A stretch of DNA of 64,000 nucleotides, from assembly GCF_963921235.1 (NCBI RefSeq), contig NC_086097.1:128280001-128344000 (forward strand), given 5' to 3'. The stretch comes from Mobula hypostoma. Its lineage: Eukaryota. The notes under the pieces were generated by a model. That model was given only the letters and a program-made list of their open reading frames with translations, searched no databases and was not told the origin of the DNA. Shown here in pieces: positions 2,441 through 64,000 of this stretch (position 1 is the stretch's first letter; each line of letters starts with the position of its first letter). Made by a program: the position numbers and the translations under genes.

Positions 2441-5113
2441 TGATTTTGAACACGAGATAGAAGCTGGCCTTGAACCTGAGGATATGTGAGTTTAAAGAAT
2501 GAACAGCATCAATGCTTAAACTATCTCCAAGACAACTTCCCTTTAATAAATTCCGAAGCATAAAAGTTCATGCTTATAGCCAACAATTCTCTGAATTCTC
2601 CAGCTTATTGGAACATTTATTACATCTCTGTCTAACATAAAAAAGAAGTAAAAACAAAATGCGTTGGGATGATACAAATAACCATAAGACTGTAAGATAT
2701 AGGATCAGAATTAGGTCACTCAGCCTATCAAGTCTGCTCCACCATTTCATCATGACTGATCCATTTTCCCTCTCAACCCCATACTTCTGCGTTCTCCCTG
2801 TAACCTTTCATGCCCTGACTATCAACTATCATCTTCAATACACCCAGTTACCTGGCCTCCACAGTCATCTGTGACAATTAATTCCACAGATTCACCAGTC
2901 CTTGGCTAAAGAAATTTCTCCTCCTCATCTCCATTCCAAATGGACACCCTTCTATTTTGAGGCTGTACCCTCTGGTTCTAGACTCCCCCAGTATAGGAAA
3001 CATCCTCTCCATATCCACTCCATCCGTGCCTTTCAACATTTGATAACTTTCAATGAGATTTACCTTCATTCTTCTAAATTTCAGCCAATACATCCACAGA
3101 GCCATCAAACGCTCCTCATACAATAATTCTTCCATTCCCAGAATCATCCTCATGAACCTCCTCTGGCCCTCTTCAATGTCAACATATCCTTTCTGAGAGG
3201 ACAGGAGCCCAAAACTGCTCACAATATTCCAAGTGAGGCCTCACCAATGCCTATTAAAGCCATGGCATTACATCCTTGCTTTTAATCATATTCCTCTCAA
3301 AATGAATACTAACATTGTATTTGCCTTCCTCACCAGCGACGACTCAACCTGCAAATTAACCTTCAGGGAATCCTGCATGAGGACTCCCAAATCACTTTGC
3401 ACTTTGGATTTTTGAATTTTCTGCCTGTTTAGAAAACAGTCCATACTTTTGTTCCTTCTACCAAAGTGCATGACCCTATACTTCCCGAAACTGTATTCCA
3501 TCAGCCACTTCTTTGTCCCTTCTCCTAATCTGTCTGTCCTTCTACAGCCTCCCTGCTTCTTCAGCACAATCTGCCTCTCCACCTGTCTGCATTTTATCTG
3601 CAAACGTGGCCACAAAGCCATTAATTCTGTCATCCAAATCATTGATATATAATGTAAAGAAAAGCAGTCCCAACACCAACCCCTGTGAAGCACCACTAGT
3701 CACTGGCAGCCAACAAAAAAAGGCTCCTTTTATTCCCACTCTTTGCTTCCTGCCATTCAGCCAATCCTGTAAACATGCTAGCATCTTCCCTGTAATACCA
3801 TGGGCTCTTATCTTGTTGTGCAGACTCACGTGCGGCACTTTGTCAAAGGCCTTCTGAAAATTGAAATACACGATATCCAATCCTCCTTTGGCTATGCTGC
3901 TTATTATTTCCTCAAAGAATTTCAGTAGATTAGTCACGCAAACCATGCAGACTTTAACTTAGTTTATCATGTGCCTCCAAGTACCCTGATACCTCATTCT
4001 TAAAAATCGACTCCAACGTCTTCCCAACCACTGAGGTCAGGCTAACTGGCCTGTTATTTCGTCTGCTTCCCTCCATTCTTGAAGAGTGGAGTGACATTTG
4101 CAACTTTCCAATTCTATAGAACCATGTCAGAATCTAGTGACTCTTGAGAAATCATTACTAATGCCTCCACAAATTCTTTACCTACCTCTTTCAGAACCCT
4201 GGGGTGTAGTCCACCTAGTCCAGGTGACTTATCTACCTACACACTTTTCAGTCTCCTAAGCACCTTCTCCCTAGTAATAGCAATTGATCTCACTTCTGCC
4301 CCCGACACTCTTGAAATTCTGGTGTACTGCTCCTGTCATCCACAGTGACAATAGATGCAAAATACTTATTTAGTTTTCCCCCCATTTCTCTCTCTCCAGC
4401 ATCATTTTCCAGTGGTTTGATATCTACTCTTGCCTCTCTGTTAATCTTTATATATCTGAAAAAAATCTTTTGAGACCCTTTTTGATGTTATTTGCCAGCT
4501 TACCTTTGTATTTCATCTTTTTCCTCCTTATGTCTTTTTAGTTGCCTTCTGATGGTTTTTAAAAGCTTCCCAATCCACTAACTTCCCATTAAGTTTTGTT
4601 ATAATATATGATTTTTGATTTTATATTGTTTTTGACTTTCCTTGTCAGTCATGGTTGCATCATCCTGCCCTTAGAATACTTCTTCCTCGTTGGGATGTAT
4701 CTATTCACAGTTGCTCTCAGAAACTCCAGTCATTGCTGTTCTAGTGTCATTCCCGCTTGTGTCGCCTTCCAATCAACTTTGACCAGCTCCTCTTTCATGC
4801 ATCTATAATTCTCTTTATTCCACTGTAATACTGATACATCTGACTTTAGCTTCTCCTTCTCAAATTGCAGAGTGAAGTCTGTCATATTATGATCACTGCC
4901 TCCTAAGGGTTTCTATACCTTAAGCTCCCTAATCAAATCTGGTTCATTACACAACACTCAATCCAGAATAACCTTTCTCCTAGTATGTTCAACCACAAGC
5001 TGCTCTAAAAAGTCATCTCGTTTGCATTCTTCAATGGTCTCTCTTGGGATCCAGCACCAACTTGATTTTCCCAGCCTATCTGCACATTGAAATCCTCCAT
5101 GACTCTCGTAACA

Positions 5114-47862: not shown

Positions 47863-48495
47863 GTGTGTGTCTGTGTGTGTGAGTGTGTGTGGGGTGTGTG
47901 TTGTCTGTGTTCGTGTGTGTGTGTGTGTGTGTGTGTGTGAGTGTGTGTGTGCGCGAGGTGGGCGTGACGTTCCTTTTGTTCTCCCGGGCTTCCTGATTGC
48001 GGCACACCTGAATCTCATCTGCCCTGCAGCATAATTACCCCGGCTTTCCATCCACTCATTGCCAGATCGTTGCTTCAGCCAGTGTGGTAGTTCAAGTTCG
48101 AGGCCGCTTAGAATTGTGTATTCTAAGTTTTGTTTCCGGGCTGTTGTTTGCCTGTGGTGACTCTGTCTCTCCGTGTTAACAGGAGCGTTACATGCCGCCT
48201 GCCTTCCCGTTCATTCTCCTGCTTGCCGTTTTCCCCCAGCCATGCTCGCACCCTTGCCTGCATCCCTGCTCTGCCTCGTCCCTCCACCCGCCTACACTCT
48301 CCGCTGGCTCAGTGGTTAAATGCCGCGCTCTCACCGCAGCGACCCTGGTTCGATCCCCGGTCCAGCCTTGCTCACTCCTCTGCTTTCCTCTGTCTAATCC
48401 TCATTCCCCTGCCGGCAACCACTAATAGACACTCTTCAGATAACTCTCGCTCCGTGTCAGTGTCCTGCGTTTGGGTTCACATGTTCCTCACAACA
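47735..48495 (+). repeat. 5' LTR (contains (TG)n tract, TATA-like ATAATTA at 48031 and tRNA-like module)
   Basis: Direct repeat of 52164-52881; begins TGTCATGG, ends ACAACA. Confidence 0.95.
48298..48368 (+). ncRNA. tRNA-Glu(CTC)-like module in 5' LTR
   Basis: A box TGGCTCAGTGG 48305-48315; anticodon arm CCGCG-CT-CTC-AC-CGCAG; B box GGTTCGATCCC 48347-48357; closely parallels vertebrate tRNA-Glu(CTC) as I recall it; acceptor stem not canonical. Confidence 0.8.
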
Positions 48496-48496
48496 G

Positions 48497-48507
48497 AACG
48501 ATCTGGC
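48497..48507 (+). promoter_or_regulatory. Self-priming primer-binding site
   Basis: AACGATCTGGC directly after the 5' LTR is the exact reverse complement of GCCAGATCGTT at 48061-48071 within the LTR. Confidence 0.85.
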
Positions 48508-49546: not shown

Positions 49547-52150
49547 TACGTAAATGATTCCCTCACGGCTGGCATCATCCGACCCTCATCTTCTCCCGTA
49601 GGCGCTGGGTTCTTCTTTGTGGCGAGAAAAGACGGCTCGCTATGCCCATGCATCGACTACCGTGGCCTGAACAACATTACCACAAAAAATAAGTATCCCC
49701 CGCCCCCGATCAACTCAGCATTCAAGCTCCTTCACTGAGCCACTGTGTTCACTAAATTGGACTTGTGGAACGCCTATCACCTGGTCAGGATACGGGAGGG
49801 AGATGAATGGAAGACAGCCTTCAACACCCCCCTCCGCCATTTTGAATACCTGGTGATGCCCTTTGGCCTGACCAACGCTCCTGCGGTATTCCAGGCTCTG
49901 GTCAACAACGCCCTTAGGGACTTAATCAACCGATTTGTTTTCGTTTACCTGGGTGATATCCTAATCTTTTCCTGTAACCTCCAGGAGCTCACCCTCCATG
50001 TCCGCCAGGTTCTTCAGAGCCTCTTGGAAAATAAACTATTTGTCCAGGCTGAGAAGTGTGAATTCCATGCCCGTTCCGTCAGTTTCCTAGGGTACATCAT
50101 TGAGAGTGGGCAGGTGAGGGCGGATCCCGAAAAGATCCGGGTGGTGGCAGAGTGGCCAAAACCCATGTCGCTTAAACAACTCCAGCGATTTTTGGGATCC
50201 ACGAATTTCTACCGTCGCTTCATTAGGGACTACAGCCGGGTGGTAGCACCCCTTACTCAGCTCAGCTCACCTGCAACCCCCTTCCACTGGACCCCCAAAG
50301 TGGATTCAGCCTTCTCAGAGCTTAAGAGGCGTTTCACCTCCGCTCCCATCCTAGTCCAGCCTGACCACTCTCGCCAGTTCACAGTGGAGGTGGAAGCCTC
50401 CGACACTGGGGTGGGGCTGTCCTCCCCCAGTGCTCTGTCCCAGACCAAAAGCTCCATCCCTGTGCCTTCTTCTCTCGCCGTCTATTCCCCGCTGAACATA
50501 ACTACGACGTTGGGAACTGTGAGTTGCTGGCCGTCAAACTCGCCTTGGAGGAGTGGAGGCACTGGCTGGAGGGAGCTGAACATCCACTCGTTGTCTGGAC
50601 GGACCATAAGAACCTGACATACATTCAGACAGCTAAATGCCTTAACTCCCGCCAAGCCCGTTGGGCACTGTTCTTTGGCCGCTTCAACTTCACCCTCACC
50701 TACCCTCCTGGTTCCAAGAACGGGAAGCCAGATGCTCTCTCTCATCAATACGTCTCCGAGGAGGGCCCTTCCAATCCTGATACCATCCTTCCACCACCCT
50801 GCATCGTGGCTGCCCTCACTTGGGAGATCCAGTCCGTAGTTAGAGAGGCTCAACGGACTCAACCTGACCCAGGCGATGCCCCCCCCCTACCCAATTGACT
50901 CTTTGTACCTGACTCTGTCCCTTCTCAGGTTCTTCAGTGGGGACATACTTCCCGGTTCGCCTGCCATCCTGGAATCGGTCGCACCTTGTCCCTTTTGAAG
51001 TGACATTTCTGGTGGCCCACCATGGATGCTGACACTCGTTCTTTCGTCTCTGCCTGTTCTGTGTGTGCCTGTAGAAAAGCCTCCCATTGGCCACCTGCTG
51101 GGCTGCTTCATCCCCTACCTGTCTCTGGCCACCCTTGGTCCCACATAGCTCTCTATTTCATCACTGGTCTACCTCTTTCACATGGTAACACAGCTATACT
51201 CACTGTTGTGGACCATTTTTCCAAAGCCGTGTACTTCATAGCCCTTTCCAAACTCCCTACAGCCCATGAAACTGCTAACCTCCTTGTCCAACACGTCTTC
51301 CGCCATCGTGGAATCCCTTCCGACATCGTTTCTGACCGGCACCCCGAATTCATCTCCCAAGTCTGGAAATCCTTCTGACAAGCTCTCGGAGCTTCAGTAA
51401 GTCTGTCTTCCAGTTTCCATCCACAGACTAGCGGTCGGACGGAGCAAGCCAATCAGAACCTGGAAGCAGCACTGTGCTGCATTTCTGCCAGTAATCCCTC
51501 ATTCTGGAGCACACATCTCACTTGGATTGAGTATGCCCACAACTCCCTAACCAGCGCCGCCACCGGAATGTCTCCCTTCGAATGCTCCCTCGGCTATCAA
51601 CCCCCTCTGTTTCCTGCCCATGAAGATGACATTGCTGTGCCTTCAGTTCAGGCCCATCTCTGCCGGTGCTGCAAGGTCTGGAGGGACGCACGCGCGGCCC
51701 TGCTCCGCTCTGCTGACCGCAACCGGAGTATCGCTGATTGCCACCAATTTCCAGCACCCAACTATCAGCCTGATCAGAAGATTTAGCTCTTTTCAAGAGA
51801 CATTCCCCTCAGAACCGAAACCAAGAAACTCACCCCTCATTACATCAGACCATTCGAAATCGAGAGCATCATCAACCCATCAGCAATCAAACTCAAGCTA
51901 CCCAGATCCATGCACATTCATCCCACGTTCCACGTCTCCCAACTGAAATCTGTGTCTGTCAGACCTTTGTGTCCTCCCGTTGAACCCCCTTCACCTGCCC
52001 GGGTCATCAACAATCACTCAGCTTACCCCGTGCGGAGAATACTGAATGTGCGCCGCCGAGGCAGGAGTTTCCAGTACCTCGTCGATAGGGAGGGATGCAT
52101 TCCTGAGGAGCGCACCTGGTTCCCCCACTCCTTCATCTTAGACCCCTCCC
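49547..52150 (+). pseudogene. pol: Pol (RT, RNase H, integrase, chromodomain; protease absent), disrupted
   Basis: [54 protein letters not shown] (YLDD mutated); [23 protein letters not shown]-x5-H...Cxx[24 protein letters not shown]; chromodomain [26 protein letters not shown]. Confidence 0.93.
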
Positions 52151-52163
52151 TCGGGAGGGGTAA

Positions 52164-52260
52164 TGTCACGGTCCCGGCCGTCCCTCCCGTTTATTCCTCG
52201 TGTTCTCCTAATTCCCTTTTCCCCGTGTTTCTCTTGCCCCCGTGTCTGTCTCTATCTCAC

Positions 52261-52302
<42 letters not shown>

Positions 52303-52305
52303 CGC

Positions 52306-52342
<37 letters not shown>

Positions 52343-52881
52343 CGCGCGCGCGCGAGGTGGGCGTGACGTTCCTTTTGTTCTTCCAGGCTACTGATTGCGG
52401 CACACTTGAATCTCATCTGCCCTGCAGCATAATTACCCCGGCTTTCCATCCACTCATCACCAGATCGTTGCTTCAGCCAGTGAGGTAGTTCACGTTCGAG
52501 GCTGCTTCAAATTGTGTATTCTAAGTTTTGTTTCCGGGCTGTTGTTTGCCTGTGGTAACTCTGTCTCTCCGTGTTAACAGGAGCATTACATGCCACCTGC
52601 CTTTCCATTCATCCTCCTGCTTTCCATTCTCCTCTAACCACGCTCACACCCCAGCCTGCATCCCTGCTCTGCCTCGTTCCACCGCCCGCCTGGCTCAGTG
52701 GTTAAATGCAACGCTCTCACCGCAACGACCCTGGTTCGATCCCTGGTCCAGCCTCGCTCACTCCTCTGCTTTCCTCTGCCTAATCCTCACTCCCATGCCA
52801 GCAACCATTAATAGGCACTCTTCAGATAACTCTCCCTCCTTGTCAGTGTCCTGCGTTTGGGTTCACCCGTTCTTCGCAGCA
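52164..52881 (+). repeat. 3' LTR
   Basis: Begins TGTCACGG after the PPT, ends GCAGCA before GATAA; contains (TG)n/(CG)n tract and a second tRNA-like module. Confidence 0.95.
52691..52754 (+). ncRNA. tRNA-Glu(CTC)-like module in 3' LTR
   Basis: TGGCTCAGTGG...CGCT-CTC-ACCG...GGTTCGATCCC; A box, anticodon loop and B box identical to the 5' LTR copy. Confidence 0.75.
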
Positions 52882-53199
52882 GATAAATAATGCAGATGAT
52901 AGTGAGAACCATTATGTAACGGGAAATGGAAATGGGAGATGTATGTGTAATGGCAAAGATCACTGTTGTAGGGTCAACTGTTCTAGAATTCTACAATTCA
53001 ATTGGAATCTTAGGTCTATTTTTAAAACTAGAATTTCATTTTCATCTATTAAACTAGCAAATACAGGCGTAGACATTAGTTGTGTATTAGCAGAAATGAT
53101 TTGAACTTAACTAGCTACAAGTTGAATGTTCATAATTTGGAGAATATTTGGATGTATCGATTAATGCCGAGAAAGGTGTGCATCCCTAATATGTTATTT

Positions 53200-53590
53200 G
53201 CCACCTCATTACCTATTTCATTAGTTCCCAAAGAGCAAGGAGATACCTCTGAAGCCGGGTAACTGTTGTGATGTGGGAAACACGACAGCCACATTGCACA
53301 GGGAAAACTCCCGTATATGTCAATTAGGATTATTCAATACCCTTGTAAGCATTATATATTGGTCAGAATTCCTGGGATAAATATTCCCCCCCCCCCCCCA
53401 CCTTCAGCATAGAGGCCATTGGACTTTATACACTCACCTGAAGAGGAAAAGTAACTTCATCTGGAAGACGGCAACTCCATTGACACAGGACTCCCTTAAG
53501 GAGTCAGCCTAGATTTAAGTGTCCGGAGTGGAACTTGAACTAACAACCTAGAGGGAAGACTGCCATCACAGAATCTATGTCTACAGCCAA
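53200..53590 (-). mobile_element. Ancient DeuSINE/LF-SINE-like remnant
   Basis: gacagccacattgcacag...cactcacctga...gaagacggca...agtcagcctagat...ggagtggaacttgaac resembles Deu-domain SINEs as I recall them; similar remnants near 1090-1195, 31480-31680 and 43050-43390. Confidence 0.5.
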
Positions 53591-55284
53591 GATATGTAAT
53601 TATATACCGTAACTTTGAGTAAAATAAGCAATTAGATAAGTTATAATTGCAAGGATGTCAAGCAGAGTCTGTAAATGACCAAATTTTCAATGCACTTAGA
53701 AAGGTTTTGCAACAAATATAGGACAACTTAATAATTAGATTTAGGTTATGGAATTCTGTATAATTAGATAAAATATACAGTTTAAGCCCAGCTCTTGCCA
53801 AGTGGCATAAGGCACTTCTTCTGTCGAAGTATCCCTGAACTCTCTTGTGGATTCCTGCAGAATATTTTGTTGGTGGCTTATAATGACTAGAGTGCCTCTG
53901 GACAAGTTTTGTTTCTCTGGAGAGACTTGTTTATGCTTAATCCAACCAATGATATTGAGCTTTTTCTTTAACTTGGTGATTGTAAAGTAATTTTTAAATG
54001 TGGGACTTCATAGATATATCAAAAAAGGAAATAGACCTTTTGCATCGGGGTTATTTTCTGCTCTTAAATATTCTAACAATCACTGTATTGCCTGTATAAT
54101 TTAATACTGTCTGTAATGGTTTAATGGCAGTAGCCCAGTATGCTGTGGGAATCTTGATAGACTGAATAGTTAGTTCTGAGGATTGCTGTGAGGTTAGGTT
54201 CATGTATGACCTTACAAACCAGCTCAAGGGGAGGTAACAATAATGAGTTAGAAAAGCAACTGGGGAATAGGTATCAAAACCACTACTGAATTCTTAAAAA
54301 AATAATTAGGGAGGCATCCTGTCTCCAAAGATCATGTTGATTTTATATAATTGAAATGCTTATTTTAAACTCTGCTGGGAGTTGGGACCATGGGATGTTG
54401 AAGCCTCTGCAAATGGCTCCTTGTTTCTATTTAATCCCCTTATTAACTTACAGTCCAAATACCAGTGCAGCGTTGTAATCAAGCCAACCCCCCATCCACT
54501 TTAGAGATTGACAATCCTATTAAGGAAAAATTAGTGAGTGGATGCTAATGTTAATTTCAGTGCCTGTTGTTATTAAAAAGAATAGAGGTTTAATTTAATT
54601 AACTTTCTTCAGCCTGAGAACATGTTTAACAGTAAAGTTGTGTAGAAATTCATTGCCTATATACAGTGCTGTGCATGCTATGTACTTCCAGCCTGTTATT
54701 ATCTACCCGTGAAATTAATTTCATTAACTTCAATAGAGTGTATTTTGAAGACTGCGACTGTAACAGAACGCCCCCTTAATACAGCAGTTCTCAATCAGCA
54801 TGATCTTCTAAATTGTGCCTTTACTTACTTCATTCGCAGGGTTTGGGCTTTACAGTCAGGCCAGCTTTTGATGCCCATTGAGTCAAGGAGTAATACAGTA
54901 TGTAAAAAGGCCCATTGGCCCAACTCATCCAGGCTGACCGAGATTCCCATAGATAGTCCCACAGCTGGCCCATATCCTTTCCTATCCATGTACCGTATCT
55001 GTCAAAGTGGCTTATAATAGTTGTTATTGTACACGCACCACTTCCTGCACGATGAAGGTGCCTTCAAAAATAATTGCTGCTCTTTTTTAAATCAAAAATA
55101 TATTTTATTCTTAAAATATTCAATTGTACAATACAGACCATTGTATTGGCTTCATCCTAGCTTGTTATTACCTCTGCTTATAATGATCATAGTAAAATGT
55201 TTGTCATGTTTCTCAGTTGCAAATAAACTTAAGAGATTAAAACTAGTGTTCAGTGGTGTGAGGATCCCATACCTTTTTCCTCAC

Positions 55285-55830
55285 AGAGCCTTTGGGATAT
55301 TGTGAGCAGTTTTGGGCCCCTTATCCAAGAAAGGATATGCTGGCATTGGAGAGGCTCCGTACAAAGTTCATGAGAATAAGCCCAGGAATGGAAGGGTTAT
55401 TGTTTGATGAGCATTTCATGGCTCTAGGACTGTACTCACTAGATTTTAGAAGAATGTGGGGGGGGGGGGGGAACCTCATTGAAACTTTCAAATATTGAAA
55501 GGAGAAGATAGAATGGGCATGGCGAGGATATTTCCTATAGTAGGGAGTCTAGGACCAGAGGGTACAACCTCAGAATAGAAGGATATCCATTTAGAACAGA
55601 GATGAGAAGGAATTTCTTTAGCCAGATGGAGGTGAATCTGTGCAATTCATTTCCACTGATGGCTGTGGAGGCCAAGTAATTGGGTATACATAAAGTGGAA
55701 GTTGATAAGTTCTTGATTAGTAACAATATCCAAGGTTATGGACAGAAGGCAGGAGAATGAGGTTTGGAGGGATAATAATGATGGGCTGAATGGCTTACTT
55801 CTACTCCTATGGCTTATGGTCTTATAGTCT
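55285..55830 (+). mobile_element. CR1 3' fragment
   Basis: YCEQFWAPYPRKDMLALERL...LGLYSLDFRRM; (CTTATGG)n tail. Confidence 0.85.
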
Positions 55831-57855
55831 TAGTGATTGTAGTTTCTTGGTCAGGGAGTCAACGATGCAGTTACAAATGGAAGTGTTGTGATGGCTATTC
55901 ACTGTCCTGGGTGAGAGGGCCTTGCTGTTTTGCCAAGCTCAGTTTTCTAAGCACAGCAGCTGCCATTTCTAAAGATCAAAGAGTTAAGTTAAACTTCCAA
56001 TTAATATTCTTTGTATAGTTTCCGGTCGTAAATGGGAGCCAGACTTCAGTTCTTAATGTAAATGGCAAGCAATAATCAGTTTGAAAACAGAGTTTTGCAA
56101 ACAAGCAGATGGTGCTGTAACAAGGTTTAATCAATGCAGATTGTAGATTTGGACTCTCTCGGTCTAGTCACTCTTTTTTTGTCACTACTTTTGAGCAACC
56201 TTCAAATTGGGGAGGCCTGCAGTTAATGAACGCTGAGCTGAACTGTACTGTAATGTGCCTTTTGATTTTGTATTATTATATTCTGTGTTTTCAATCTTTT
56301 TTTGTCATTTGTTGTCAGGTAGGTTTCATGTTTGATGTTTTTCTTTGGGCAGGTTGGTTCCATGGTCCTTCTTGTTTTGTGACTGTCTGTGGGGAAGACG
56401 TATTTTAGGGTTGTATACTGTATACATACTTTGATAATAAATGTACTTTGAACTTTGAGCTTTTGGACTTGATTCTCTATCTATAGAATTCAGTATGTTA
56501 TTTCACAACACCTGAACTTATTGCTGAAGAAATGCAGTATAAGACAGTGGGTGGAGCGGATCTCTCAGTTGTTAGATGAGTGGCAGTGCTCGGTTGAGGG
56601 AGAGTGATAGGGATTGGTTGAAAGTTTGAGTAGGCAGGCTGTTGATGGTGTTAGAACTGTCAGGTTCAATTACCCCATAGTGACAGCTGCCAGTTATCTG
56701 AAAGAGGGGGAAAATGCATCTGGTTCGACTGGAAGTAAAATGCAGTGCCTGGGGGGCTTTCCATACCTGTGTCAGGAGATTGGGGAGAAGCTTTCAGTGT
56801 ATCTTCTCTGGCTAGGAGGGCAGCTAATTTTCTTGCAGTGCCAGGGGGATCATTTAAGGGGATCAACCCCTCCTTCAATTGTTCAGCTGATCAGAGAGGT
56901 GTCGGGCAACTTAATGGAGGCCCAGTGGGGGAACGGCTTTGGGTCTCTGGGGAAGCACATTCCCAGCAATGAACCAAGGAGCTCCCGAAAGGAACAGACC
57001 CTATTCCTGAAGGCTTAGAGGGACCACGCGTGTCGTTACGGATAGATGGAAGCTATGCTAAAGCCATCCTCGACACTGGGGAGCAGGTCAAGTTGTTGTA
57101 CAGTTCATTTTACAACTGGTTTCTGAAGAATTTACCCTTGACAACCTTAAGGGCACTGAAGATTTGGGGTACCAGTGCCAGTGATTATCCAGAAGACGGT
57201 TATTGGTCAGTGAAACTGGAGTTCATGGGGGCATTGTCCATGCACCCAGTGTTTCGAGCTGCTTGTGAGGACGTGTGTAGCAGCCTTGGGCCGGTACCGA
57301 GTTTAAACGAGAGCCAATTGTGGTATGGCCTGGGGGAAGTATCTGAGGGTGAGACCCTCTTAGTAGACACTCCGAAATACCACAAGGGAGGGGAGTTGAC
57401 CACTGAAGACACCTCGGTGAGAGAGAGGTCGCAGCGACTGACCCCTGTGGCTGTGGAAGACGTAGGCAGCGTGTGTGTGGATTATAGGACTCTGAACAGG
57501 CGCACTGTCATTGACCAGAATACGGCCCTGAGGGCCAAAGACGCAATGGTCTGTCTGAATGGTGCGAGGTGGTTTGATGTGCTGGATCTGAGGAGTGGAT
57601 GTTGCCAGATCCCGATGAGTGAAGCCGACAAGGAGAAGACGGCCATTATAGGTTCCCTAGGATTCTTCCAATCCGAAAAGATGCCACAGGGCATATCCGG
57701 AGCCCCTGCAACCTTCCCGTGGGGCATGAGGAAAGGAAGACCATAGTTGGACGTTGAGGTGTTTGGAGTTTTGGCGTATGTGGATGATTGCTTAGGGTTT
57801 GGATTCGCCTTTGGGGGACTATGATGTGAGGTGGGTGCCGGAGCCCCGGACAACC

Positions 57856-58215
57856 ATTGAAGAATTGGAGTTCACGCTTGTCAAAGTGGAAACAGGGAAA
57901 CATAATTCTCATCCGAAACTGCGGTCCTTTACTGATGAATTAATCCAGAGAGACAAAACAATGACCAGCCTTCGAAAGGATGAGCAGAAACTCAGGACAT
58001 CGATCCAGAACAGATTGGAAGAAGCTGGTGGTGTAATTGCATCCCAGATGGAGATGGACATGAAGCGTGGGTCAGAACTGCTGAGACTGGGGCGAGAGTT
58101 GGAGGAGTCAGTGAAGAAGCTGACGTCTCGACTGCAGGAGGCTGAAGAGACTGCAGAGGCAGCCTAGGCTAAGTGTTTCAGTTTGGAGAAAATCAAACAG
58201 CAGCTACCGATCGAG
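57856..58215 (+). pseudogene. Captured sarcomeric myosin heavy-chain rod fragments (three fused segments)
   Basis: IEELEFTLVKVETGKH..KLRSFTDEL | RLEEAGGVIASQMEMDMKRGSELLRLGRELEE | [30 protein letters not shown] align by eye to three separate MYH rod segments. Confidence 0.82.
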
Positions 58216-58709
58216 AGAATGTGGAAGAATATGGCATCGAAGGATGATGTGCGGGATGTGTGGTACTTGCTGCCTCTTGCTAACTTCTCCTTGATTGAGG
58301 AAGAGACTTTTGGCCCTTCTCCCACTGAGTCAGGTGTAGTGGGGAGGACTAGCTGTGGGCAGCCTGGGTTACAGCAGGACCCTGCAGGAAAAGAAGTGGT
58401 GCCCTGGACATGGGACAGGGGGCTTTGAGTTGCAGTAGGGGCATGAGTGAGAGATTGAGAGAGGATTTGGCAAGCACACTCGAGGTGTCCGAGCCTGAAG
58501 GGTTTAGGTGAGGGGGTACAGAGGTCTCGGAGGATTAGGAAACTCCCAGATAGGTTGGGCTATGTAGCGCCTGAGGAACAGGGCGTAAGGTCCACTGTTT
58601 GGTGAGCAATGTCACTGTTTATACCTGGTTTGGGTCCTTGTGTCTGCAGGAAGGGTTGGTGAGTTATTTAGAAGTCATGAGGACATGACTAAATTTGGTG
58701 GGGGGAGAG

Positions 58710-59389
58710 TGTAAGGGGTTTCTTCTTTTATGTTACTGTGAAGGCTAATGAAAATAGCTTCTTTGTTATGTTAACTGCTGAGAAAGTGCTTCTCTTTCGC
58801 AGCTTGGTTGGGTTATATTATTGATAAGAGAGTCTCGAACCAATTGGGATAGATGTTCTTGTGTGTCTGTAAGCTATTGTTTTTCATGGGCTTTGAGGCA
58901 GAAGGTAGATGGGGGCAGAGAGAGTGGACACGATGCTGTAAGCTGGGCGTCAGGATGGACCCTGAGCAGGAGTCCGAGGCCCAGGGTCTTCGGCGAGGAG
59001 AGGAGACGAAGACAGACTCATGTGGAGCATATGGTCGACCACCATGGTTGGTCCCAGGCAGCGGGTCGAGGAGGTCGGAGGGGATTGAGTGGTGGAAAGG
59101 AGACTCCGTTAATTGAGCTCCAACTGTTGTGCACAAAATGGTTGAACTTTGATAAATTTGGCGCCTTTTATTTTCCTTTTATATTTTATCTCTATTAATT
59201 ACATAGTTCCAGTAAGATCTATAAACTGTGATCATTTAATCGCATATGGTGTATTGTCTGTTATTTGGCGGGGTGGGGTACATCACACAGCATCCACACA
59301 AACTTGATTACCCAGTTTGGCGGGGTCGAAGGCTGCTCCCCCGAGACGAGAGGGAGTTGAGCGCGCCTGAGGCTTACCAGGGGGCTACA
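58710..59389 (+). repeat. 3' LTR of the PNMA-type Gypsy element
   Basis: Begins TGTAAG right after the polypurine tract and ends GCTACA; no partner LTR in the window. Confidence 0.75.
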
Positions 59390-60014
59390 ATTAATATTAA
59401 TAACAGCATTAATCGTGGATACCTGGGATCTCAGTCTCCAGAAGCTTTTACACCTCTTGTGATAAAAGGTGTCTGAAAGAATATCACATGCATGTGATGT
59501 CACACAAGTAGCAAAAAGATAGCATAAGTTTAGATAGCAGTTCAGGTTTTGTAGGAATGGTCCAGAAACATCAAGGAGAATGACAGAAACACAGGGTGAA
59601 CTGGAATCCATTCCTTCTGCCTTCGATTTCTGTGATGAATGACTGGTTCGTCCATAGCTTCTAGGTATGTTTTTTTAGCTTATGGAAATTATACCTGTGT
59701 TTTGGAAATCCTTTATATGATAGAAATTCTTCCTGAGTTTTAAATGTGCTTTAAGAATGTTGTTTAAAATTAAATATGTGTCACTGAATATAAATAAACT
59801 GTGTTTGAACTACTTTGTTAGCTGGAACTAGCTCCTCCTTGTTAGGGAGGGGAAGGTTCACTGCTTAAATAATGGGTATTGGCAGCTAATCTTACCATGA
59901 AGGATAAACCAGAAAGTGAACTAATCTTTAAAGATTGGGTAGTCAGAGTACAACCTCCCTTTAGTGATATTACCCATAGCTCTTGACATTGGATAGGGCT
60001 TAAGGTGTTCATTT

Positions 60015-60510
60015 GAGATTAGAACTTTGTGATCAGCAAACTCAATATCACCACCATGTTGAGACACAACTCTAAGAGTTTGGAGATGAGTTTTCTCGGA
60101 ATTATCGTATTGAAGGTGGATCTGTAGTCAATAAACAATAGTCTAATATTGGTTTCTTTACTGTCCAGATGTTCCAGAGATGATGTGGGATCAGGGAGAT
60201 CTATGTTGGACAGAGACAATTGCACCCAAGATGAAGGCACCTACAAAAATAGCCTGGTAGATTTTATTGCCAAGGTAGAGTTGTCAAGTACTAGAGGCCA
60301 TAGGTTTAAGGTGAGAGGGAGGAAGCTTAAGGGATTTGTGTGAAAGATGTCTGATGTCTGCAATATACAACCATGGGAGGCGGTGGAAGCAAATACAATA
60401 GCAAAGTTTAAGAGGAATTTATACAGAAGCATATACAGACAGATGGGATTAACTAGGCTGGCACAGAAACGGTGGGCCGAAAGGCTTTTTCTTGTGCTGT
60501 ATCGTTCTAT
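60015..60510. mobile_element. Adjacent Rex1-type (-, 60015-60190) and CR1 (+, about 60255-60510) fragments
   Basis: [38 protein letters not shown]...EAVEANTIAKFKRNL. Confidence 0.75.
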
Positions 60511-61164
60511 GCCCATATGTGTTTCTTGCATATATATATATATAGTAATGAATGATATACAGTATATTTTTGAAATTAAAAATAAGGTATGGCAGGTTTC
60601 TTTCTCTCAAAAATTGATATCTTCTGCAAACTCATAAAATGCAACTTCAATACTATTTTTAAGTTCATTGCAAAGTGTGCATGACTCCCAGACACAGATT
60701 TCATTTGAACTGACAGCATGTTGATGGTGAGATTAATCAGCAATTAATGTTCATATTCCTGCTTGTGACCAGAAACAAATTGTTCCTTCAGTTTTTCATC
60801 ACACCAACATCAGAGTTACAAAGGACTCACATGTTTTTACTTCTGATGTTGTTGAGAAATGCAGAGATGGAGGAGACTTTTGCTTTATGCAATAATTATG
60901 GAGATCATTAGTTGTCACATAATTTCAGAAGAAGCAACATATCATTACTTCAGATGTTGAATGTATTATTGCTATAAAGAGGCCAACAATATCACAAAGT
61001 CACACAGCATGAAAACAGGGCCTGCAGTTCAACTCATCCACGCTGATCAAGATGCCATGTAAGCTTATCCCATTTGACTGCTTTTGGCCCAAATCTCTCT
61101 CACCTTTCTTATCAACGTACAGTACCTTTCCAAATATGTACATCATATACATTCAATATATTAT

Positions 61165-62385
61165 CTAGAACCATAGAACCATAGAACATTACAGCACAGA
61201 AACAGGCCTTTTGGCCCTCCTTGGCTGTGCTGAACCATTTTTCTGCCTAGTCCCACTGACCTGCAGCTGGATCATATCCTTCCATACACCTCTCATCTAT
61301 GGACCTGTCCAATCTTCTCTTAAATGTTAAAAGTGAGCCCGCATTTATCACTTCATCTGGCAGCTCATTCCACACTCCAACCACTCTCTGTGTGAAGAAG
61401 CCCCCCAATGTTCCCTTTAAACTTTTTCCCCCTTCACCCTTAACCCATGTCCTCTGGTTTTTTTCTCCCCTAGCCTCAGTGGAAAAAGCCTGCTTGCATT
61501 CACTCTATCTATACCCATCATAACTTTATACACCTCTTTCAAATCTCCGCTCATTCTTCTACGCTCCAAGGAATGAAGTCCTAACCTATTCAACCTTTCT
61601 CTGTAACTCAGTTTCTCAAGTCCCAGCAACATCCTTGTAAACCTTCTCTGCACCCTTTCAAACTTATTAATATCCTTCCTGTAATTCAGTGACCAAAACT
61701 GCACGCAATACTCCAAATTCAGCCTCACCAATGTCTTATACAACCTCACCATAACATACCAACTCTTATACTCAATACTTTGTTTTATAAAGGCCAATGT
61801 GTCAAAAGCTCTCTTTACGACCCTATCTACCTGTGATGCCACTTTTAGGGAATTTTGTATCTGTATTCCCAGATCCCTCTGTTCTACTGCACCCCTCAGT
61901 GCCCTACCATTTACCTTGGATGTTATACCTTGGTTTGTCCTTCCAAAGTGCAATACCTCACACTTGTCTGCATTAAACTCCATCTGCCACTTTTCAGCCC
62001 ATTTTTCCAGCTGGTCCAAATCCCTTGCAAGCTTTGAAAACCTTCCTCACTGTCCACTACACCTCCAATCTTTGTATCATCAGCAAATTTGCTGATTCAA
62101 CTTACCACATTATCATCCAGATCATTTATATAGATGACAAATAACAATGGACCCAGCACTGATCCCTGTGGCACACCACTAGTCACAGGCCTCCACTCAG
62201 AGAAGCAATCCTCCACTACCACTCTCTGACTTCCTTCATTGAGCCAATGTTTAATCCAATTTACTACCTCTCCATGTATACCTAGCGACTGAATCTTCCT
62301 AGCTAACCTTCCTTGCGGGAGCTTGTCAAAGACCTTACTGAAGTCCATGTAGACAACATCCACTGCCTTCCCTTCATCCACTAGA
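61165..62385 (-). mobile_element. CR1 LINE, 5'-truncated, well-preserved RT
   Basis: ORF 62097-62402 [15 protein letters not shown]...[25 protein letters not shown] 61417-62019 WQMEFNADKCEVLHFG...LEYCVQFWS; (TAGAACCA)n tail. Confidence 0.93.
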
Positions 62386-64000
62386 TAAAATGTATTAACC
62401 ATCTATTACAAACTTAGTACCTTTGCCAAGATAGTTCTCAATTCTGTGCTAAGGAGATCTCTAAAATGCTGTTTGAAAATAATATAGTGCAAAATTTTGG
62501 CACTTGGTGGGCTTTCTGCTTTTTCTTTGTCTTTGTTTTCAACTTCCAAGAGTTAACTATTTCAAAATATTACACCAAATGTTAGCTGTGACCATTACTT
62601 TTCCCTTTAAGCCTCAAACCTGGCTGGAAATCAGTCATGTTTCTCTCTGATGGTCAGTCCAGTTTCCCTTGGGAAATTACATACTGGGCAGTTTTTGAAG
62701 GTTCATCAGGTAAAAAAAATGGAAAGCAAATGATGTAACTAGAATGTAAAATCAGGCACAGGTACCGCAACATAAACATTGGTTCGTAGGAGTGTAGATC
62801 CCTGGCTTTCTTCTAGGTTTCCAAAGAACCACATATTAATGATGCTGAAGGAATGAGTCGCCTTTGGAGAAAATGTGTGCAAAATGAAGGATGAAATAAA
62901 CAACTGTTGTAAACCATCTCCGACCTCTCACCTAGCACTGAAAACCCAAATCCCTGTGCTGGAGTTACTTCTACTCCTAAGACAGCAAAGGGAATAGTTT
63001 CTGGGAAAAGAAATAGGAAAAAAGACCTTAAAATAGACTAACACATGTTGCGAACATTGAGATAATTATGCAGTACATGCTATAGCTAATTCTAAATGAT
63101 TTAAGAAGGAATTACAGAATTTGACTTTCGTCCTAATCTACACTCAATTAAATTCCCAACTTTCATGAATAGTTCCTTTCATGAAAGAACAGAGCCTAAA
63201 CATGAAAAAAAAATCAGTTAATTACAACAAAAACTGTTTCATGACATTGTAATTGGACCTTAGTGTAATCAATGACTCCACTGGGGATGCCCTAATGAAT
63301 GTTAAAATCCAAACATAAAGCAGACACTTAAGCAGTCAGGTCAATGCTTCCTAATGAAATCAAATGAAATCAAATTACAGAGCAAGGCATTTTTATTGAA
63401 CAGATTCCTTGTTGGCAGATTCCCAGAACAAAAATATTTTCTCTCCAAACTGTAGGAAAGAAGTAGCAAAGTGTGTTCTAGTACCTTGCAGCTATTTAAC
63501 AAAGTCGTTTAAACATGAAATGAGCTAAGTTTAGAATTGTGAATAATCTTGTGCACGTGTAATATTGACTGCAGTTAAGGATCACCATGGTAAACGATTG
63601 ACCTCAGGTCACATAACTAACTACGAGCCTCATAATAACCAAAATCCATGGCTCAAGGCTTGATTGCTCTTAAAGCAGTTTGTTATTTCATTTGAGTGGC
63701 TGCCCAATTGGCATAGAGTGAGGCATGGTGTTAAATGTTATTTAACTACACAAACACACCAGTAGACTCAATGCCACACATCATGCTGCACTTTATCGTG
63801 CAGTTACACTTGGCCGTGGCTGTAGGTAAGGAGGTGAATCCCAAGAGGAATTCCAAATCCATACATTATTTCCTAAAGTTACACACTCTGACCTCATTCT
63901 CTCTGCAAACACTACGACCTATTGTTAATGTGTAACATAACAACCATGAAATTTAAAACAAAAGAGGAAGGATTGTGTGGAGTGGGTGCAGGAGAGGAGG

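Follow-up and report, generated by a model that had tools for sequence, protein, structure and literature searches.

In replication-defective transducing retroviruses, a spliced host mRNA replaces part of pol or env and a helper supplies the missing proteins, and maize Bs1 is a plant LTR retrotransposon that carries gene fragments. For LTR-mediated retrocopies in animals, the mechanism proposed in the relevant parts of Tan et al. (2016, Genome Res 26:1663, PMC5131818) involves short similarities at the switch points, and in-frame chimeric ORFs are reported there. The passage of the same paper dealing with MaLR elements describes them as mobilised in trans by MERVL (PMC5131818). Here we describe a locus in the window, a stretch of 64,000 nucleotides of the Mobula hypostoma genome (NC_086097.1, positions 128,280,001 to 128,344,000, forward strand), in which an intronless piece of myosin heavy chain lies between retrotransposon sequences. 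The region is very probably cargo within a non-autonomous Ty3/Gypsy-type LTR retrotransposon. Across the family, the cargo consists of rod residues corresponding to about MYH7 888-1425, with gaps, fused to reverse transcriptase (RT) or RNase H, and no complete motor-neck-rod gene is present; it is a myosin fragment and not a myosin gene.

The stretch from 57856 to 58215 (+) translates into 120 codons with a single stop, the TAG at 58165-58167 already reported in the preliminary description. Most of the 20 other copies fetched have CAG where the window has TAG, and a C was found at 58165 in contigs from 4/4 sequencing runs aligned to the region (their RNA label is a guess, and one run is probably DNA). 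The contigs of these four runs contain family sequence across the whole element. When the 120 residues were searched with phmmer against 177,635 distinct PDB sequences, 16 matches were obtained at E<=1, and the best 10 of the 16 were class-II muscle myosin heavy chains, including Myosin-4 (E=1e-7) and MYH7 (E=7e-7). The matches fall into three collinear, non-adjacent pieces of the rod, as had been proposed: query residues 1-58 correspond to MYH7 954-1011, residues about 50-86 to MYH7 about 1146-1183 and residues about 82-118 to MYH7 1386-1422. The segment borders first suggested were correct to within a few bases, and the second junction lies at a shared LEE motif, which reads ELEE(S). At the DNA level, 58013-58109 gave an ungapped alignment of 97 nt, with 70-74% identity, to all eight host sarcomeric MYH exons tested in the same genome.

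The match could in principle reflect chance resemblance between coiled coils, or the segments could be real exons of a host gene at this locus. The profile results for the window copy lend themselves to this reading: with the 120 residues and protein P0001, Pfam returned coiled-coil families only below threshold and no Myosin_tail_1, and an NCBIfam search gave nothing useful. Even in the long variants described below, Myosin_tail_1 scored 28.6 bits (E=4.5e-7) and 22.6 bits, under the cut-off of 38.1. Myosin identity nevertheless goes beyond coiled-coil noise, because a longer family member matches MYH7 over 248 ungapped residues at E=4.5e-41. Together with the DNA identity to host exons, the MYH16-specific residues and tree placement, and about 200 dispersed, LTR-flanked copies, this refutes both chance resemblance and spliced host exons, to which we assign a practically negligible probability. 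The protein-level comparison called for in the preliminary description therefore yielded collinear sarcomeric MYH matches and not merely low-complexity coiled coil.

The features of the window copy are listed in Table 1. Homology to the 20 fetched copies begins at 56537-56547 and stops at 59384-59405 (blastn), and the window copy lacks the 5' LTR and the leader of about 390 bp that are present in full copies. Most other copies contain the 58708-59392 part two times, once as the 5' LTR and once as the 3' LTR (blastn). All nine LTR pairs aligned are 681-715 bp long and have the termini TG..CA; a purine run precedes the 3' LTR, and a conserved run follows the 5' LTR in nine copies. No flanking direct repeat of the element was found within the window; 4-bp target duplications were seen by eye at L009, L017, L025 and L028, the four copies whose flanks were read.

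Table 1. Features of the retrotransposon copy and its myosin cargo, in window coordinates
Feature	Position	Strand	Basis
Whole element copy, 5'-truncated	56537..59389	+	blastn of window 50000-64000 against 20 fetched copies
gag remnant, PNMA-like, Gypsy-type capsid	56545..56826	+	Pfam PF14893, E=5.7e-10, 39.3 bits, cut-off 25 (stops read as X)
257-codon open frame: aspartic-protease region, then N-terminal half of RT	56973..57746	+	ORF list; RVT_1 E=2.6e-5, RVP weak
End of RT remnant, YVDD motif at 57777-57788	57747..57849	+	Sequence and frames
RT-to-myosin deletion junction	57848/57849	+	Comparison with L042
Myosin segment 1, about MYH7 954-1011	57850..58022	+	phmmer
Junction 1, 11-nt microhomology	58012..58022	+	Deletion of about MYH7 1011 to 1146; shared by both parental sides
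Myosin segment 2, about MYH7 1146-1183, inside one large host exon	58012..58110	+	phmmer, host exon alignments
Junction 2 (ELEES, codons 58096-58110) and myosin segment 3, about MYH7 1386-1424	58096..58215	+	phmmer, alignment
Tail of chimeric ORF	58216..58511	+	No Pfam family; L041 and L043 ORFs stop at the homologous place
3' untranslated part, with polypurine tract at 58691-58709 directly before the LTR	58512..58709	+	Sequence; same purine run in 9 copies
3' LTR, 680 bp, TG...CA	58710..59389	+	blastn, sequence, LTR pair alignments

The position of the integrase separates Gypsy from Copia elements. In this family, the domain order is protease, RT, RNase H (Pfam), the best solved-structure matches of the RT are to Ty3, and integrase is absent from every copy seen. 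The PNMA-like gag is also found in copy L009 (PF14893 at 3505-3972, E=1.3e-8). In the window, RVT_1 on the frame extended to 57857 reaches 29.2 bits against a cut-off of 29.6, and the homologous 333-codon ORF of L009 matches Ty3 RT over residues 12-120 (4OL8, E=3e-13; 7Q5B, E=2.2e-12) and MYH rods over residues 177-256 (PDB search). The L009 ORF is a natural in-frame RT-myosin chimera. In the window copy, RT and myosin are put into different frames by a one-base insertion in a G run near 57810, which is private to this copy; contigs from the aligned runs have one base fewer at 57810, and in 12 of the 20 other copies the YxDD motif and the myosin lie within one ORF.

Two other features of the window lie near the element. 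The stretches 48000-48497 and 52398-52883 are direct repeats of about 490 bp, 91% alike and 4.4 kb apart, and resemble the two LTRs of a separate element; the left repeat touches the edge of the searched region and is possibly longer. On the reverse strand, 61417-62046 holds an open frame of 209 codons, similar on visual inspection to the C-terminal portion of a LINE-type RT, and pieces similar to this frame adjoin several family copies (blastn).

Downstream of the myosin, the stretch 58216-58707 had been taken for a C-terminal remnant of pol, a label that was not borne out, as we detected no homology to pol or to anything outside the family. Pfam gave no family, no longer homologue was present among 76 candidates, and blastx against myosins showed no similarity. 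Among 1.84 billion representative proteins, the tail matched four, all of them short ORFs of the same element family. The tail at 58216-58511 may be an unrecognisable C-terminal end of pol, and, as a guess, an ORF end about 200 nt before the LTR would fit an old pol terminus.

Longer family members were found with a degenerate pattern for a conserved rod motif, which recovered, besides the host MYH genes, some two dozen scattered copies whose spelling is more myosin-like. Six such copies were fetched, followed by the upstream flank of one of them and two more copies chosen from protein matches. These longer variants belong to further subfamilies of the element; where sequence is shared it is 77-85% alike, and their inserts are longer. 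In L049 and L050, RNase H lies directly upstream of the myosin, with PF17917 (E=1.7e-11) and PF17919 (E=1.9e-13) both over the cut-off. In L050, the 248 ungapped residues that match at E=4.5e-41 follow right after RNase H and correspond to MYH7 890-1137 (stops read as X). The joint between RNase H and myosin is in frame in one of these two copies. Another variant, L040, retains about MYH7 1030 to 1183. The jump ELEES/KKKL, from MYH7 about 1183 to about 1388, is common to all variants with segment 2, and the exit from myosin into the tail is identical in all variants.

The preliminary description had proposed that the insert was compacted by deletions, and the longer variants, which still hold the missing stretches, agree with this. 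Relative to L042, the RT-myosin joint of the window form lacks 153 nt, with a 2-nt overlap. At junction 1, likeness to L049 and L050, which continue into myosin, ends at 58022, and likeness to L040, which has the upstream part of segment 2, starts at 58012. In other subfamilies, one deletion removed 393 nt with 5 nt of overlap, another 72 nt with 11 nt of overlap, and a third a net 1011 nt, so that the later deletions show microhomologies of 11, 11, 5 and 2 nt. Judged from these comparisons, the window form is a much-deleted derivative, among the most reduced.

The variants also bear on what the myosin displaced, which had been described as the RNase H/integrase part of pol. Because the least-deleted variants keep RNase H with myosin right after it, the integrase was the part replaced at capture; RNase H, being retained in L049 and L050, was lost later, together with half of the RT, in the subfamily of the window. 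The RNase H-myosin order of the longer variants, together with the common jump and the common exit, means that there was one capture, in which integrase was replaced. None of the variants seen is complete: those that retain RNase H (L049, L050) have no YxDD part of RT, and in those with YxDD (L041, L042) RNase H is missing wholly or for the most part. The complete ancestral chimera has perhaps gone from the genome.

The insert very probably derives from a spliced transcript, with at least four host introns absent, in agreement with the intronless state first reported. When segments were mapped to the exon boundaries of host MYH genes, segment 1 was found to span an exon-exon junction, at 57918|57919, with no intron in the element, and segment 2 to lie within one large exon. 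The corresponding exon of L039, a fast-muscle MYH gene of the host, has ATENK at its end and is followed by a 107-nt intron; family copies read straight through, and tblastn of copies L010 and L023 against L039 gave a 36-codon gap exactly at that junction. The 261-residue insert of L050 corresponds to five collinear exon blocks of L039, followed by the segment-3 exon, with four introns missing. An intron-free parental fragment bounded on both sides by the sequence of one LTR element is therefore present in the family.

A similar end state could have arisen if a LINE-made processed pseudogene, or a genomic fragment, had landed in a Gypsy copy and the composite had then been amplified, with no template switching, and other intron-free myosin-tail pieces do occur in the genome. 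Such an insertion fits poorly with the structure of the joints: the insert begins and ends inside the coding region, without 3' UTR or poly(A), is sense-oriented, lies in frame with pol on its upstream side, takes exactly the place of integrase and shares its 3' joint among all variants. We consider this origin very unlikely, and capture by RT template switching is the most likely route, by analogy with the LTR-mediated retrocopies of animals. The intron-free myosin-tail matches themselves (Pfam positions 514-993) are at C18:48745314-48746731, C50:30689110-30689772, C184:304888-305403, C157:172388-172903, C21:138691427-138692201 and C22:72797295-72798020; some of these six stretches contain stops, one has a 248-codon open frame, and they could be processed pseudogenes or further cargo variants.

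As to the donor, an ancient paralogue of MYH16, MYH15 or MYH7B type had been put forward, and the insert is of the MYH16 type. Host sarcomeric genes tested at the DNA level (the C68 cluster, C2 and C40) are only 60-73% alike and were ruled out as donors. A protein search with a longer copy gave 879 proteins at E<=1e-3. The top matches were short annotated proteins of Mobula birostris, Mobula hypostoma and Hypanus sabinus, with the same RT-myosin or RNaseH-myosin joints, and the next were real myosins, with elasmobranch 'myosin-16-like' proteins first. In an E-INS-i alignment, many residues are common to the family and MYH16-like rods only. A maximum-likelihood tree (IQ-TREE, LG+G4) was built from 20 reference rods and seven family sequences, with a host non-muscle myosin II as outgroup; the Callorhinchus MYH7B reference was dropped for its poor gene model. 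With the root in place, support of 100 was obtained for the monophyly of the seven family sequences, and UFBoot was likewise 100 for their grouping with the four MYH16-like proteins, to the exclusion of MYH1/4/6/7/7B/15; the unrooted tree left this placement ambiguous. The family falls outside the crown group of shark and skate MYH16-like proteins in the rooted tree, which could be a long-branch effect. Summed blastp scores placed MYH16-like references first for six of seven queries, by small margins, and last for the piece from the window, and were judged too noisy to use.

A genome search with a skate MYH16-like protein found no full gene and only part of one, on C36. This host locus, L047 (C36:112721900-112724300, -), is a MYH16-like gene with introns, in which one exon begins at a point internal to a large exon that is undivided in the fast-muscle MYH genes. 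The L047 exon and the family are 77-82% alike over 44-64 overlapping nt. Decayed copies of the element (proteins P0002-P0006) are annotated in ray genomes as 'putative uncharacterized protein MYH16' or 'myosin heavy chain, striated muscle-like'; they are retrotransposon ORFs and not myosin genes.

The family is present in many copies. A 701-nt query across both joints gave 1718 first-look candidates, and all 40 that were scored were 89-100% identical over at least 689 of the 701 nt, on many contigs. A 26-mer over the junction of segments 1 and 2 had at least 198 genome matches at three or fewer mismatches, 87 of them exact, against none for the reversed control; for a 29-mer from segment 3 there were at least 194, with none for its control. 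The genome-wide count suggested beforehand thus puts the three-piece form of the window at about 200 copies. The LTRs of a copy are 87.4-93.5% identical in all nine pairs (JC distance 0.068-0.138). If neutral change is taken to proceed at 1-2.5e-9 per site per year, a rate that is uncertain for rays, the insertions would be roughly 14-69 million years old. An LTR family spreading host gene fragments, as first proposed should the locus prove multi-copy, is accordingly right as regards the multi-copy spread, but this spread is ancient and nothing shows it to be ongoing. The myosin pieces of L020 and L024, both on contig C62 and about 1.4 Mb apart, are 99.4% alike, against a mean of 91.9% among the 21 myosin pieces, which suggests a later segmental duplication and not separate insertions.

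Family copies decay neutrally after insertion. Stops or frameshifts occur in the myosin part of 8 of 20 copies, the differences among the 21 myosin pieces are spread over the codon positions as 1686/2074/2086, and pN/pS within the family (21 sequences, 120 codons) amounts to 0.68 for the true frame and to 0.75 and 0.69 for the two wrong ones. NG86 dN/dS values in the myosin part (0.24-0.46) had looked low; wrong-frame controls and the codon-position counts showed this to be mostly a bias of the method, and the result was rejected. The comparison of dN/dS among copies that had been recommended therefore indicates neutral decay within the family, with lower in-frame values between subfamilies only. 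The myosin piece is most likely passive cargo that does nothing.

The between-subfamily values belong to a different reading, in which the chimeric ORF mattered to the element or the host and only pol-myosin-tail derivatives in one translatable frame were copied on. The sizes of the measured deletions (393, 72, 1011 and 153 nt) are multiples of three in all four cases, and three of these deletions join unrelated sequence. Two members of one subfamily, L041 and L043, stay open for 346 and 353 codons, beginning in the RT thumb and ending at the shared stop; RT and myosin share one ORF in 12 of the 20 window-type copies, as noted above; and between subfamilies the myosin pN/pS of 0.33-0.49 in the reading frame compares with 0.55-0.96 in the other frames, from few codons and non-independent pairs. 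The four deletions, on the other hand, come from variants that were not sampled at random, L049 and L050 having been chosen from protein matches with long open frames, and the RNaseH-myosin joint is in frame in just one of those two copies. Decay within the family is neutral, and the tail is without constraint, its value of 0.87 in frame being above the 0.73 and 0.60 of the other two frames. Since the sample is small and non-random and the tail carries no such signal, we regard it as unlikely that the chimeric ORF mattered in this way, and a lineage filtered for an unbroken pol-myosin-tail frame without constraint on its residues is a similarly doubtful proposition. Possible reasons for such a filter are that translation up to a natural stop shields the genomic RNA, or that a Pol fragment with a coiled coil travels in a partner's particles or disturbs them. 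If it were true, translation through the cargo would be needed for RNA survival or packaging, or the coiled coil would multimerise truncated Pol in helper particles, and the myosin would be a working part of a parasitic element, not ballast. Frame-keeping deletions, if found genome-wide, would indicate a translation-linked filter on non-autonomous LTR elements.

Returning to passive cargo captured by template switching, we propose the following history. An element of the order gag-PR-RT-RNaseH-IN, present in some ancestor of the myliobatiform rays, would have picked up a spliced MYH16-type mRNA. The captured rod would have comprised about MYH7 888-1183 joined to about 1388-1425, placed at the position of integrase and in frame with pol. 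The most likely route is that the RT switched template within a virus-like particle, leaving pol RNA for a myosin mRNA packaged with it and later returning. Having no integrase, the chimera would have moved only via the proteins of an autonomous relative, yet it multiplied. RNase H, half of the RT and stretches of the myosin were shed on the way by internal deletions, several of them at short repeats, and this gave rise to the subfamilies.

The family is a clear vertebrate example of an LTR element that took up a portion of a host gene and, over a long span of time, amplified it to hundreds of copies; its variant series records the stepwise whittling of the cargo at short repeats. It also has a practical consequence, as the decayed copies that bear the name 'MYH16' in public ray genomes inflate counts of the myosin gene family. 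We found no account in the literature of a ray LTR family with myosin cargo, and at least six of the seven papers that mention both MYH16 and retrotransposons were unrelated, going by title and abstract. The mechanism and the kind of element are already known, and the ray family with MYH16 cargo is a new member of that kind.

Among the known systems, the animal LTR-mediated retrocopies, as presented in the relevant parts of their description (PMC5131818), share with the ray family an intron-free piece of host mRNA that lies between two LTRs, in sense orientation and with no poly(A). The retrocopies described there are young and single-copy, whereas the ray chimera is old, has about 200 or more copies in several subfamilies and occurs in several ray species. 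Plant LTR elements, going by what the rice and sorghum study (PMC3726574) and a review (PMC13317346) set out on this point, likewise hold host gene fragments between their LTRs and have multiplied them; the ray family differs from the elements covered there in its vertebrate host and in carrying a fragment of a muscle structural gene, fused in frame to pol in place of integrase. The MaLR elements, in the respects treated in PMC5131818, resemble the ray element, which is without integrase and multiplied as an LTR-internal-LTR unit with target duplications, but the ray element retains a long chimeric ORF and host coding sequence. Unlike the transducing retroviruses, the ray element carries a rod fragment with no known activity, and it is endogenous and was amplified in the germ line.
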